A stretch of 64,000 nt of DNA from Gemmatimonadaceae bacterium (GTDB lineage: Bacteria > Gemmatimonadota > Gemmatimonadetes > Gemmatimonadales > Gemmatimonadaceae), in the NCBI GenBank assembly GCA_051859245.1, contig JBHYGA010000005.1, positions 96,001-160,000 on the forward strand. The letters are read 5' to 3'. Positions 25,339-38,055 of this stretch are shown one piece after another. Position numbers and translations under genes: made by a program. Within the stretch, counting starts at the first letter, position 1. Each line of letters begins with the position of its first letter. The notes below the pieces were generated by a model. That model was not told the DNA's origin and searched no databases. It saw only the letters and a program-made list of their open reading frames with translations.

Positions 25339-25411
25339 GCTGACGTAGCTCAATTGGCAGAGCACCTGATTTGTAATCAGGCGGTTACCGGTTCGATTCC
25401 GGTCGTCAGCT
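25339..25411 (+). tRNA. tRNA-Thr(TGT)
   Basis: Acceptor GCTGACG/CGTCAGC, anticodon arm cctga-TTTGTAA-tcagg, TTCGA T-loop. Confidence 0.96.
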
Positions 25412-25447
25412 TGTCCGGGGCGCCAGCGGTGCTGGTGCGCAGAGTTC

Positions 25448-25530
25448 GGTGAGGTACTCAAGTGGCCAACGAGATCAGACTGTAAATCTGACGGCGCAAG
25501 CCTTCGAAGGTTCGAATCCTTCCCTCACCA
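25448..25530 (+). tRNA. tRNA-Tyr(GTA)
   Basis: Acceptor GGTGAGG/CCTCACC, tcaga-CTGTAAA-tctga, long variable arm. Confidence 0.96.
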
Positions 25531-25571
25531 TGTGTTCGTCGGTTTTCGAGGCGAACGTGCAGGACCAGTAC

Positions 25572-25644
25572 GCGGGAGTAGCTCAGTTGGTAGAGCGCTA
25601 GCCTTCCAAGCTTGATGTCGCGGGTTCGAGTCCCGTCTCCCGCT
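25572..25644 (+). tRNA. tRNA-Gly(TCC)
   Basis: Acceptor GCGGGAG/CTCCCGC, anticodon loop CTTCCAA, TTCGA T-loop. Confidence 0.96.
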
Positions 25645-32416: not shown

Positions 32417-32625
32417 TCGAGATCAGGAAAGTGGAGGCGCCGGCTGCTCCGGCATGAGCCGACGCGCCTGAAGCGAGACAATAAACCAATCACGCGACCG
32501 GCGCGCCAAAAATCCATGCTTGACAGATCGCCAAAACGCCCCATACTGTCCATGTAACACTGGCTTGCACTCACGTGTGATTGCAAGCCAGTGAGCATCG
32601 CACCAAGACATAAGCACTGGTCGCT

Positions 32626-32789
32626 GCATCTGGTGGTTCGGATGTGGCGTGAAGAGGGAACCCGGTTCAAATCCGGGGCGGCCCCGCCGCTGTGAGGGAG
32701 GACAACGGAGCATGCAGCCACTGCGGTCAGTCTGACGTGGGAAGGCGGCTCCCGCGGATGAATCCCGAGCCAGAAGACCTGCCAGTTGC
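32626..32789 (+). ncRNA. cobalamin riboswitch
   Basis: AAGAGGGAA, CCGGT..AATCCGG, CCCCGCCGCTGTGA, GCCACTG, GGGAAGG, B12 box GAGCCAGAAGACCTGCC; closing P1 helix. Confidence 0.93.
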
Positions 32790-32865
32790 CCGGAGTCCGC
32801 GCGCACCCTCGAGGGAGGATGAGCCGGGGATTGCGTACGGCCTCATCAGGGCGTGCGTGGCCGAG

Positions 32866-32898
32866 GGCTCCTTGCGTTTGCCGCAAGGAGTCTTTTTT
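32866..32898 (+). terminator. leader terminator (riboswitch expression platform)
   Basis: ggctccttgcg-tttgc-cgcaaggagtc followed by T6, upstream of the RNR start codon. Confidence 0.82.
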
Positions 32899-32983
32899 GT
32901 CGCCGTCCGAATCGTCGGGCGGCGCCGAACATCGGTCGGTCCTCGGGGGTGCACTTTCTGCAACGACGCACCACGAGGTTGTC

Positions 32984-35413
32984 ATGTCCACCACCGTTGC
33001 TGCTGTACGCAACAGCGCCACCACGATCGGCACGTATACGCCGCTCGCGCCGATCAGCGCGCTCACTGAGGTCGTCAAACGTGACGGCCGTCGCGCCCCG
33101 TGGGATCCCGATCGCATCACTCGCGCCATCGCACTGGCGTTCTACGCGTCGCGCACCAACGACGCCCCCAACACGCACGCCGATGACGCGGCCGCGCGCT
33201 ACGGACTCGGCTTTACCGATTTCTCCGAAGTGTGCGCCATTACGCAGCTCGTGGTGAACACGGTCGAGCGCAAAGCCGCGAGCGAAGCGCCCACCGTGGA
33301 AGGCATTCAGGACGTGGTGGAAATGATGATCGCCGCGCGCGGACACTGGGACATTGCCAAGCGCTATGTGCTCTATCGCGCGTCGCGCTCACAAACGCGC
33401 TTGTTGCCGCACGACGTGAGCGGACTCGAAGATTACATCTTCATTTCGCGCTACTCGCGGTACCGCGCGGATCTCGGTCGCCGTGAAACGCCGGCCGAAG
33501 CCTTCACGCGCGTGATGGACATGCACCGCGAACACTTTGCCGACCGTCTTGACCGGCCGGTAGCAGGACTTGGGAATCGCACACTGCGCGCACTGCTCGA
33601 CGACACGGAGCAGGCCTTGCAGCGCCGCGCCATTCTGCCGTCGATGCGTTCGTTGCAGTTTGGCGGTACCGCCATCGAAGCAAACAACGCACGCATGTTC
33701 AACTGTGCGTTCACGCACATGAATCGCCTTGAGGCGTTTCGTGAGTCGTTCTTCCTGTTGCTCTCCGGAACGGGAGTTGGATTCAGCGTACAGCGTCATC
33801 ACGTGGCGCAGCTGCCCATGTTCCCGGTGCGCGCTGCGGAGAATGAGTTGCCGGTCTTGCACTACAATGTGCCGGATCAGCTCGAAGGTTGGGCCGACGC
33901 GCTGCACGCGTTGCTGCGTAGCTATCTCGACGGACAGAAGATCGAGTTCAACTACAGTGCGATCCGCGCGCGTGGATTGCCACTGCGCACCTCGGGCGGT
34001 CGGGCGCCTGGGCACCGGCCACTGAAAAAAGCGCTCACCGCTGTTGAGCGTGTACTCGATCAGGTGTCGGGACGCGCGCTGCGTCCGATCGAAGTGTATG
34101 ACATCATGATGCACGTGGCGGTGGCCGTGCTGTCAGGCGGCATTCGCAGGTCCGCCACGATCTGTCTCTTTTCGGCCGACGACGAAGAGATGGCGGCCGC
34201 GAAAACCGGCAACTGGTTCGAGACCAATCCGCAGCGCGGCAAGTCGAACAACTCCGCCGTGCTCGTGCGCGACACGGTGAAGGAGCAGGATTTTGCGCGA
34301 CTGTTTGAATACCAGAAGGAGTACGGTGAGCCGGGCTTCTACTTCGTGGACGACGCCGAATACGGCGCGAATCCGTGTGTGGAGATCGGATTGGCGCCGG
34401 CGCTGACCGTTGATGATCGCGCGCGTGTGCAGCTTGCCGCCTATGGTCACGATGATGTGGCGGTTGGCACACGGCTGAGTGGTTGGCAGATGTGCAATCT
34501 CACCACCATCAACGGCGCGCAGTGTGACAGCGAGGAAGATTTCCTGGCCAGCTGCCAGGCGGCGTCGCTGCTCGGCACATTGCAGGCGGCCTACACCGAC
34601 ATTCCGTATCTCGGCGCCGTCACGCGCGTGATCAACGAACGGGAGTCGTTGCTCGGCGTGTCGATTTGCGGCATTCTGGAGCGTCCGTCGGTGTTGCTCA
34701 ATCCGTCGGTGCTGGAGCGCGGTGCGCAGGTGTGTCTGGATACGAATGCCGCGATCGCTGAACATCTCGGCATCAATCCGGCCGCGCGCCTGACTTGTGT
34801 GAAGCCGGAGGGCACCGCGTCACTGGTGCTTGGTGCGGCGTCTGGCATTCACCCGCATCACGCCCGCCACTACTTCCGCCGCGTTCAAGCCGCGCGTACC
34901 GAACCGTTGTATCAGTGGTTCAAGCTCCACAATCCGCACATGACGGAAACGTCGGTGTGGGATCCGGAAACCACCGATGTGATCACGTTCCCCGTGAGCG
35001 CCCGTGAAGATGCGATTCTTCGCGAAGAAGTGGGCGCGGTGCAGTTCCTGGACTACGTGCGCACGGTGCAGCGTCACTGGGTGTGCGCCGGGCGTCGTCA
35101 CGAGCAGTTCAATCCCGGCTTGCACCACAATGTGTCAAACACCGTTACGGTGCGCGACGACGAGTGGGACGCGGTGCAGCAGTTTATCTGGGAGAATCGC
35201 GAATACTTTGCCGGTATCTCTCTGCTGCGCGAATCGGGCGACAAGATTTACGCGCAGGCGCCGCGCGAGGCGGTGTCCACCGAATCAGACGCGGTCAAGT
35301 GGAACGCGCTGCAGTACCGTTCGGTGGACTACACACTGCTCCGTGAAGAGCACGATGTCACCGCGCTCGCCGATGTGGTCGCGTGTGCCGGTGGCGCGTG
35401 CGAGATCGTGTAA
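32984..35413 (+). CDS. nrdJ: ribonucleotide reductase, class II (NrdJ/RTPR-like) with N-terminal ATP-cone
   Basis: VVKRDG ATP-cone, RMFNC, GTGVGFS, GGIRRSA, EPG, NPCVEI, CNL, TCVKPEGT, C-terminal CAGGAC. Confidence 0.85.
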   Translation: MSTTVAAVRNSATTIGTYTPLAPISALTEVVKRDGRRAPWDPDRITRAIALAFYASRTNDAPNTHADDAAARYGLGFTDFSEVCAITQLVVNTVERKAASEAPTVEGIQDVVEMMIAARGHWDIAKRYVLYRASRSQTRLLPHDVSGLEDYIFISRYSRYRADLGRRETPAEAFTRVMDMHREHFADRLDRPVAGLGNRTLRALLDDTEQALQRRAILPSMRSLQFGGTAIEANNARMFNCAFTHMNRLEAFRESFFLLLSGTGVGFSVQRHHVAQLPMFPVRAAENELPVLHYNVPDQLEGWADALHALLRSYLDGQKIEFNYSAIRARGLPLRTSGGRAPGHRPLKKALTAVERVLDQVSGRALRPIEVYDIMMHVAVAVLSGGIRRSATICLFSADDEEMAAAKTGNWFETNPQRGKSNNSAVLVRDTVKEQDFARLFEYQKEYGEPGFYFVDDAEYGANPCVEIGLAPALTVDDRARVQLAAYGHDDVAVGTRLSGWQMCNLTTINGAQCDSEEDFLASCQAASLLGTLQAAYTDIPYLGAVTRVINERESLLGVSICGILERPSVLLNPSVLERGAQVCLDTNAAIAEHLGINPAARLTCVKPEGTASLVLGAASGIHPHHARHYFRRVQAARTEPLYQWFKLHNPHMTETSVWDPETTDVITFPVSAREDAILREEVGAVQFLDYVRTVQRHWVCAGRRHEQFNPGLHHNVSNTVTVRDDEWDAVQQFIWENREYFAGISLLRESGDKIYAQAPREAVSTESDAVKWNALQYRSVDYTLLREEHDVTALADVVACAGGACEIV

Positions 35414-37982: not shown

Positions 37983-38055
37983 GCTCACGTAGCTCAGTCG
38001 GCAGAGCACATCCTTGGTAAGGATGAGGTCACCGGTTCGATCCCGGTCGTGAGCT
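37983..38055 (+). tRNA. tRNA-Thr(GGT)
   Basis: Acceptor GCTCACG/CGTGAGC, catcc-TTGGTAA-ggatg. Confidence 0.96.

Follow-up and report, generated by a model that had tools for sequence, protein, structure and literature searches.

In the textbook account, a cobalamin (vitamin B12) riboswitch lets B12 shut off genes for its own uptake and synthesis and for B12-independent stand-in enzymes. The stretch of DNA described here, 64,000 nucleotides (nt) from a Gemmatimonadaceae bacterium (contig JBHYGA010000005.1 of assembly GCA_051859245.1, positions 96,001 to 160,000; hereafter the window), carries a cobalamin riboswitch followed by a gene for a ribonucleotide reductase which appears itself to use B12. 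A conserved B12 riboswitch in front of such a B12-using reductase, in bacteria that look B12-auxotrophic, is the reverse of the textbook arrangement. The novelty lies in the target and in the two-layer expression platform, both of them unusual, the aptamer itself being of standard type. The reading we favour, and to which we give roughly even weight, is that the switch represses in the presence of adenosylcobalamin (AdoCbl), so that a second B12-dependent reductase would be induced when B12 is scarce.

The riboswitch and the gene that it precedes

An earlier note on this DNA, made from its letters alone, had described a promoter-like TTGACA-16-CATACT, a full cobalamin aptamer, an intrinsic terminator and a class II-type ribonucleotide reductase gene with no adjacent nrdB or nrdG, all of which were recovered here. 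Features are numbered by the window and lie on the forward (+) strand. The aptamer (32601..32800) matches the Rfam covariance model RF00174 with 112.7 bits (gathering score 31.5; E 1.9e-27) over model positions 1-189, that is, all 189 of them. Both the B12 box (32768-32783) and the extension lying between the P6 strands are aligned to the model, and the aptamer contains the L5 loop, CCCCG, at 32682-32686. A peripheral P6 extension is linked to AdoCbl binding in cobalamin riboswitches, according to the accessible text of PMC8123684. By these features the leader aptamer is predicted to be a class-I (AdoCbl-type) cobalamin riboswitch.

The promoter-like site (32520..32547) has 10 of 12 matches to the consensus and is the only one in the 3.4 kb between 32300 and 35700, where shuffled sequences give 0.6; its TTGAC box stays aligned across the related leaders. 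The reductase gene itself (P0001; 32984..35413, ATG at 32984, stop at 35413) encodes an 809-aa protein of the monomeric class II type with an N-terminal ATP cone.

Identity of the reductase

Pfam models recognise the ATP cone in the 809-aa protein (59.8 bits) and give weak matches to the reductase barrel and to the class II insertion domain. The best NCBIfam model, that of the AdoCbl-dependent ribonucleoside-triphosphate reductase (RTPR; TIGR02505), scores 227.8 bits, below its cut-off of 340.05, and by this measure the protein is a divergent family member and no equivalog in the NCBI sense. The sole strong match in the PDB is the L. leichmannii RTPR (1L1L; E 5.6e-27), in an alignment that spans the C-terminal cysteine pair. 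The active-site residues C241, N463, C465, E467 and C504 and, in the tail, C801 and C806 are invariant in an alignment with ten homologues (57-80% identity), and the five cysteines presumably correspond to C119, C408, C419, C731 and C736 in the customary RTPR numbering. The AlphaFold model of the protein (pLDDT 71; pTM 0.69) also has 1L1L as its best structural match (E 4.7e-24; TM 0.56/0.62; ~20% identity); the next is the class I chain 5IM3 (E 3.5e-15), and class I chains and dimeric NrdJ lie at least nine orders of magnitude behind 1L1L. Grouping with class I or class III enzymes, which the earlier note had considered as a way in which its assignment could fail, was looked at and the protein does not so group. 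It thus resembles the L. leichmannii enzyme in sequence, fold, catalytic residues and C-terminal cysteine pair, and differs from it in its ATP cone, its low identity and its score below the TIGR02505 cut-off.

Residues 219-222 form a P-S-M-R phosphate (apical) loop. In the accessible text of Loderer et al. (2021, PMC8365446) this loop variant is reported in 2.1% of NrdJ sequences, and natural enzymes with the two minor loop motifs are described as B12-dependent nucleoside-triphosphate (NTP) reductases in vitro. The protein shares its apical loop with the P-S-M-R subgroup of NrdJ described there, and the loop therefore predicts NTP substrates. We take the protein for a probable class II reductase of the NTP type that depends on B12 and has gained an ATP cone.

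The earlier note had also entertained an NrdJ-like enzyme that is not AdoCbl-dependent, in which case the riboswitch would control a B12-independent stand-in, repressed by B12 in the manner of nrdAB, nrdDG and metE. Such an enzyme would stand in the same regulatory position as the riboswitch-controlled nrdA genes of two related genomes (G050 and G008; see below), and the TIGR02505 score of 227.8 against a cut-off of 340.05 is in keeping with it. However, the catalytic and C-terminal cysteines are conserved, the P-S-M-R loop class is B12-dependent in vitro in the account cited above (PMC8365446), the fold matches RTPR with E 4.7e-24 as against 3.5e-15 for the best class I chain, and the host genome, 99.87% complete, yielded neither NrdB nor NrdD nor any other partner that would generate the radical. 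A B12-independent enzyme is unlikely on this evidence, and we would be very surprised to find the stand-in reading correct.

Reductases and B12 supply in the host genome

The host assembly (G000) comprises 4.70 Mb in 11 contigs and is 99.87% complete. A list of the other reductases of the genome, proposed in the earlier note, has a single entry, a classical NrdJ of 858 aa with an EPNSP loop, typical of nucleoside-diphosphate (NDP) reductases, and a C-terminal zinc-ribbon-like tail. The genes flanking the riboswitch-led reductase gene include no nrdB- or nrdG-type partner, and PF00268 (NrdB) and PF13597 (NrdD) have no match in the whole genome.

CobS, CbiC and MetE were also searched for in the host genome and not found. 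Four open reading frames (ORFs) contain a B12-binding domain; one of them, of 1266 aa, is taken to be MetH-like. There are only two cobalamin riboswitches, the second of which (G000:C5:861437-861635, or L003 1501-1699; 57.5 bits) precedes a Peripla_BP_2/FecCD importer, whose binding protein and FecCD-type permease appear BtuF/BtuC-like. Because CobS, CbiC and MetE are missing and a btuF/btuC-like importer stands under riboswitch control, the host looks like an obligate B12 scavenger, or auxotroph, in which all detected reductases belong to the B12-dependent class.

Conservation of the leader and reductase repertoires in relatives

Comparison was made with 80 related loci from species-representative genomes; close homologues carry the source names Gemmatimonas or Gemmatimonadota. 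The riboswitch is present in 39 of the 41 loci whose reductase is at least 76% identical, in the orientation of the gene and 190-450 nt ahead of it, with aptamer scores of 107-124 bits. The two loci without it are L028, for which there is no upstream DNA, and L031, whose leader has decayed: its positions 1300-1560 retain the promoter and 5′ hairpin, P4-P6 from the aptamer, and the element epsilon (see below), while the B12 box and P1 are gone, together with alpha/beta, [B] and the terminator. The reductase gene at L031 seems to be in the process of losing its riboswitch. At 61% identity or less the riboswitch was found at none of 39 loci (other Gemmatimonadaceae, Opitutales, Chloracidobacterium and a metagenome-assembled genome (MAG) of Blastocatellia).

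In a sample of 120 further genomes of the family the reductase gene is present in 6, CobS in 8 and a cobalamin riboswitch in 113, mostly one each. PF00268 has matches in 12 of the 120, of which only that in G050 is strong, the remainder scoring 33-70 bits. These tallies, together with the count of leader patterns given below, take in two unpublished genomes (G007 and G034), about which no specific claim is made.

All ten riboswitch-bearing genomes that are at least 95% complete (G000, G109, G217, G151, G184, G268, G333, G350, G381 and G334) also have NrdJ (PF02867). Genus g51 includes several complete genomes with the cassette. In six less complete genomes of the same genus the riboswitch-led enzyme had seemed to be the sole reductase. 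This claim was withdrawn after a control with cassette-free genomes of the window's genus, three of which, including one that is 98% complete, are without any reductase, while others have contig-end fragments only. Reductase genes are evidently often missed in this genus (g1), so that their absence from its assemblies means little; NrdJ genes seem systematically hard to assemble or bin in genus g1 MAGs. Two genomes, G083 (94% complete, 10 contigs) and G010 (100%), have a 61%-identical homologue as the only reductase detected, and in both it lacks the riboswitch.

Class I nrdA genes with an ATP cone stand behind strong, classical cobalamin riboswitches at L088 (G050, 125 bits) and at L091 (G008, 114 bits), and G050 also has nrdB, NrdJ and CobS. 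The platforms of these two leaders differ from the one described here: there is no terminator, and a simple hairpin loop bears the L5-complementary CGGGG. Within the family, the B12-controlled 'second reductase' beside NrdJ thus appears to be either a class I or an RTPR-like enzyme.

Two further observations concern these genomes. An unannotated ORF of a CobS-positive genome is preceded, at L093 (G120:C143), by an aptamer that shares its subtype with the reductase one (102 bits) and has an alpha-beta-like hairpin. Weak PF00268 ORFs (44-70 bits) occur in G010, G045, G063, G104 and G109, that is, in five of the six sampled carriers of the RTPR-like gene, always on contigs other than that of the gene; there is no such ORF in G000. 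One possible identity for these ORFs is that of R2-like ferritin proteins with no relation to the reductase.

Architecture of the expression platform

A structured platform of 180 nt separates the aptamer from the gene. In an alignment of 40 leaders its element blocks are near-invariant after P1. The first, zeta (GGAGUCC, 32792..32798), follows P1 directly and is complementary to the 5′ arm of the terminator; it is a candidate antiterminator, or P13 5′ strand. Next comes the hairpin P13a (32801..32824), formed by alpha (CACCCUCGAGG, 32804-32814) as its 5′ and beta (GAGGGAGG, 32811-32818) as its 3′ strand. P13a consists of an inner stem, CCUC/GAGG, whose pairs are invariant, and an outer helix, with GC at pair 15-35 in 25 sequences and AU there in 5. 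The near-invariant strand [B] (GCCGGGGAU, 32823..32831) contains CGGGG (32825-32829), which begins exactly where the outer helix of P13a ends and is complementary to the L5 loop CCCCG. Since both partners hardly vary there is no covariation to assess; a kissing contact between L5 and [B], as candidate L13 strand, is predicted from complementarity and conservation. Because the outer helix ends where CGGGG begins, the kiss should stack on P13a and hold it together.

A second hairpin, C (P13b; 32833..32858), occurs in every leader, with arms that differ from one leader to another and remain mutually complementary. The earlier note had marked a gatgag..ctcatc hairpin at ~32818-32847, and both the window and L004 do form it (-6.8 kcal/mol). 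L005-L009, the relatives that come next, either lack this hairpin or have it in weak form (-3.5 to -7.8), and there the conserved hairpins of the region are those equivalent to P13a (32801-32824) and C (32833-32858). Being strong only in some clades, the gatgag..ctcatc hairpin was rejected as a conserved P13.

The terminator hairpin (32865..32898), predicted by RNAfold, is made of gamma (32865-32876), a UUUGC loop, delta (32882-32893) and a U run (32893-32898). Across the 40 leaders 91.9% of gamma:delta cells are paired and both sides change in 6 of the 12 pairs. Our own scan found an equivalent in 38 of the 39 other leaders, the exception being L037; the U run, though strong in the clade to which the window belongs, is weak in L033-L042. 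A consensus terminator scan missed the hairpin at 32865-32898, though hairpin and U run seem to lie within its stated rules.

Between the terminator and the next conserved element stands a variable hairpin, D. That element, epsilon (UCCUCGGGGGUGCA, aligned as UCCUCGGGGGUG in the leader alignment; 32940..32953), is complementary both to alpha and to the ribosome-binding region (32968..32986), which is composed of GCACCACGAGG, a spacer and the ATG. The ribosome-binding region imitates alpha, with a C-rich tract followed by GAGG or GGAG, and epsilon can therefore toggle between the two.

The leader of the host's importer begins its platform with ACACCCUCGAGGG, followed by a G run and a terminator, and has an alpha-beta-like hairpin in common with the reductase leader. 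The complete pattern alpha-beta-[B] is found once per genome in 18 of 401 genomes of the family, and 17 of these copies precede the present reductase gene (both these copies and the 39 riboswitch loci come from species representatives and probably overlap). The remaining match, L133, has no aptamer and was set aside as a chance match. None of the 18 pattern matches places the same platform before a gene of known regulatory sign, and they give no help on the sign of this switch.

Alternative pairings

Two sets of mutually exclusive pairings emerge. In the first, zeta competes with delta for gamma. At least 6 bp can form between zeta and gamma in 36 of 39 leaders, with 92.5% of cells paired compared to 36-57% in slid controls, and in folds computed without delta, zeta:gamma is the closing helix of a three-way junction, whose other two arms are P13a and hairpin C, in 32 of 39. 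In the second, alpha can leave P13a to pair with epsilon over 11-13 bp; this is possible in 40 of 40 leaders (95% of cells paired). The sole substitution class in alpha:epsilon, an A-to-C change in ten sequences, is matched by an extra G in epsilon. The full-length fold without ligand pairs alpha with epsilon. The alternative partner of epsilon, the ribosome-binding window, has at least 4 expected pairs with it in 37 of 40 leaders, and the duplex beats those with shuffled ribosome-binding regions (mean z -1.5; 26 of 40 below -1 and 12 below -2, over 37 distinct ribosome-binding sequences).

Strand [B] otherwise forms 2-6 bp at the base of hairpin C, beside gamma, worth 3.5-6 kcal/mol. With the whole aptamer left free, the partner of gamma is inconsistent: zeta in 13 folds, the aptamer in 12, beta or the linker in 6 and others in 6 (n=37, leaving out L010 and L032, in which the terminator was mis-set, and L037, which has none). 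No pairing between platform elements and the aptamer interior beats shuffled aptamers.

Two other chains of pairings were considered and dropped. An 'ON chain' through hairpin C was rejected, the pairing of the 3′ arm of this hairpin with the terminator 5′ arm being no better than in shuffles. A beta:gamma antiterminator of 6 bp as judged by eye (a duplex of about -10 kcal/mol), chosen in 0 of 39 folds, gave way to zeta:gamma.

Known corrinoid riboswitches as a guide

According to the accessible text of Procknow et al. (2023, PMC10653944), ligand stabilises the L5-L13 kiss and the adjacent helix P13 in corrinoid riboswitches; the result is repression if P13's 3′ strand would otherwise be paired to the terminator's 5′ strand, and activation if the two are the same strand. 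The cobT riboswitch of A. halodurans is given there as activating and the metE riboswitch of P. megaterium as repressing. The present leader resembles both in its terminator-based platform and in the L5-L13 kiss that is expected of it, and resembles cobT further in that the helix beside the aptamer, zeta:gamma, shares a strand with the terminator. It differs from both in that the L5-complementary sequence is a junction strand between two hairpins, and no simple hairpin loop, and in having a second, translational layer (alpha, epsilon and the ribosome-binding region) behind the terminator.

How the switch may repress

The earlier note had offered either an ON-type switch or a high-affinity isoenzyme for B12 scarcity. 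Both keep some likelihood; the presence of NrdJ in the carriers and the translation layer favour the second in its regulatory sense, as an isoenzyme induced by scarcity. On this reading, when AdoCbl is bound L5 would kiss the CGGGG of [B], which is directly continuous with P13a, so that P13a is locked and alpha kept unavailable; epsilon would then pair with the ribosome-binding region, and the terminator hairpin would form. When AdoCbl is scarce, zeta would pair with gamma, and in transcripts that read through, refolding would let alpha capture epsilon over 12-13 bp and free the ribosome site. For this reading to be coherent the kiss must also weaken zeta:gamma, plausibly by drawing [B] away from its pairing at the foot of hairpin C. 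At cofactor shortage the cell would thus make more of a second reductase that depends on B12, along with the B12 importer that is under riboswitch control, and would compensate either through the amount of enzyme or through an enzyme that copes better with scarcity. The aptamer, the platform elements with their conserved complementarities, the type of enzyme, the gene repertoire and the distribution are shown by the data; we infer the kissing contact, the state preferred in the presence of ligand, and the role in the cell.

The translation layer points to repression: because the pairing of alpha with epsilon destroys P13a, the ligand can plausibly favour P13a and not alpha:epsilon. The toggle by epsilon would be pointless in an activating switch. 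L037 fits the same picture, having kept alpha, beta, [B] and epsilon though its terminator is lost. Further support comes from the gene repertoires, in which every carrier at least 95% complete also has NrdJ, G083 and G010, where the enzyme is the sole reductase detected, are without the switch, and class I nrdA occupies the same controlled position in G050 and G008, beside NrdJ in the former. In the host itself, the only other cobalamin riboswitch precedes an importer. Published cobalamin riboswitches repress, with one natural exception in the literature as surveyed in the accessible text of PMC10653944.

Several observations weigh against repression. The covariation of zeta:gamma and of alpha:epsilon is weak by the controls of the tool used, since both strands of each hardly vary. 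The segments from epsilon to the start codon are overall no stabler than shuffles (z -0.4). The terminator forms with a mean probability of 0.92 whenever delta is present, 11.5 kcal/mol better than the best alternative, and the leader folds predict no robust ligand-free antiterminator. Zeta:gamma follows P1 immediately, has the kissing strand inside it and competes with the terminator for gamma, which is the layout of the activating cobT riboswitch. The compared genomes represent few lineages and are not independent. Finally, inducing a B12-dependent enzyme at B12 shortage is without demonstrated benefit.

How the switch may activate

Several of these points are what an ON switch would lead one to expect. 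Here AdoCbl and the L5-[B] kiss would stabilise the whole three-way-junction domain, with zeta:gamma, P13a and hairpin C; zeta:gamma would use up the 5′ arm of the terminator, termination would be blocked and the enzyme would be made only with its cofactor present, while alpha:epsilon would merely open the ribosome site on every full-length transcript. The junction closed by zeta:gamma in 32 of 39 leaders, with gamma shared between it and the terminator, is arranged as in the activating corrinoid riboswitch of the available account (PMC10653944), and a default fold that is the terminator (probability 0.92, 11.5 kcal/mol) suits a switch that is off until ligand arrives. Folds and duplex comparisons revealed no third structure that competes with zeta:gamma in the bound state, and the controlled enzyme would need the ligand as its cofactor. 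Taken on its own, the terminator layer fits activation better than repression. However, the kiss that locks the junction would also lock alpha in P13a, whereupon epsilon shuts the ribosome site and the layers oppose each other. The conserved imitation of alpha at the ribosome-binding site would be purposeless if translation were unregulated, L037 retains the translational elements without a terminator, and an ON switch does not require that the riboswitch be found only alongside NrdJ, as it is in the high-quality genomes (10 of 10). We regard activation as a tentative alternative.

If the kiss does stabilise all three junction helices at once, it follows that the two layers could have opposite signs, the ligand being needed during transcription to pass the terminator and blocking translation as long as it is bound. 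Such a band-pass or timed switch would give its highest expression at intermediate AdoCbl, or only once the ligand is released. The literature examined offers no precedent, fine kinetic tuning would be needed and the sequences make no specific call for it, so that we think this arrangement improbable.

The translation layer, retained in L037 though the terminator is lost, the co-occurrence with NrdJ, the position of nrdA, the importer riboswitch and the strong prior for repression together set our weighting: repression by AdoCbl stands about evenly between right and wrong, activation is distinctly the less probable, and layers of opposite sign come far behind.

Place among known B12-controlled reductases

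B12 elements lie upstream of nrdAB/nrdDG and metE in genomes that also have NrdJ or MetH, as reported in the accessible text of Rodionov et al. (2004, PMC545781), and a cobalamin riboswitch is associated with nrdAB/nrdDG in P. acnes (PMC3848588, accessible text). The present system resembles these classical nrdAB, nrdDG and metE riboswitches in its RF00174 aptamer and in placing a second reductase beside NrdJ under B12 control. It is unlike those of nrdAB/nrdDG in that the reductase is by all indications a B12-dependent class II enzyme, so that the logic of a switch to a cofactor-independent isozyme is inapplicable. In the openly accessible article texts that the literature search brought up, B12 elements are described only before B12-independent reductases and none before a class II enzyme.

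Two NrdJ of different phosphate specificity occur in 760 of 1108 organisms with multiple NrdJ, a pairing whose advantage is left unexplained in the accessible text of Loderer et al. (PMC8365446). The host resembles such genomes in pairing an NDP-type NrdJ (EPNSP) with an NTP-type enzyme (P-S-M-R), and differs from that account, which does not mention regulation in its accessible text, in having one paralogue under a B12 riboswitch. The locus offers a handle on the question of why many bacteria keep both.

If repression is the case, a response to cofactor scarcity would be built on more of a B12-dependent enzyme or on a different one. RTPR levels in L. leichmannii reportedly rose at limiting B12 in work of the 1960s; if so, there would be a physiological precedent for inverse cofactor control of this type of enzyme. 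If activation is the case, the leader would belong to the rare B12 riboswitches of ON type, as the second natural corrinoid riboswitch that activates in the literature as accessible to us, and the first in that literature to tie synthesis of a B12-dependent enzyme directly to its own cofactor. The two-layer leader, with its decoy and toggle, is a compact system in which one aptamer would drive both termination and translation.

Other features of the leader and the window

A conserved stem-loop of 36 nt (32558..32593) stands at the start of the leader. Its stem arms vary by clade yet remain complementary, and its loop, CACGUGUG or UUCGYGA, is kept. Possible roles are that of a 5′ hairpin which stabilises the mRNA and that of a palindromic site for protein binding; it does not resemble the usual NrdR box. 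The reductase gene is monocistronic, its neighbours encoding hydrolases, a beta-propeller protein, a convergently transcribed PLD-like protein and a histidine kinase. A single tRNA gene (37983-38055, +) lies ~2.5 kb downstream of the reductase gene and a cluster of three tRNAs at 25339-25644 (+), while a c-di-GMP-I riboswitch (RF01051; 56699-56788, +) matches its full model with 81.3 bits.

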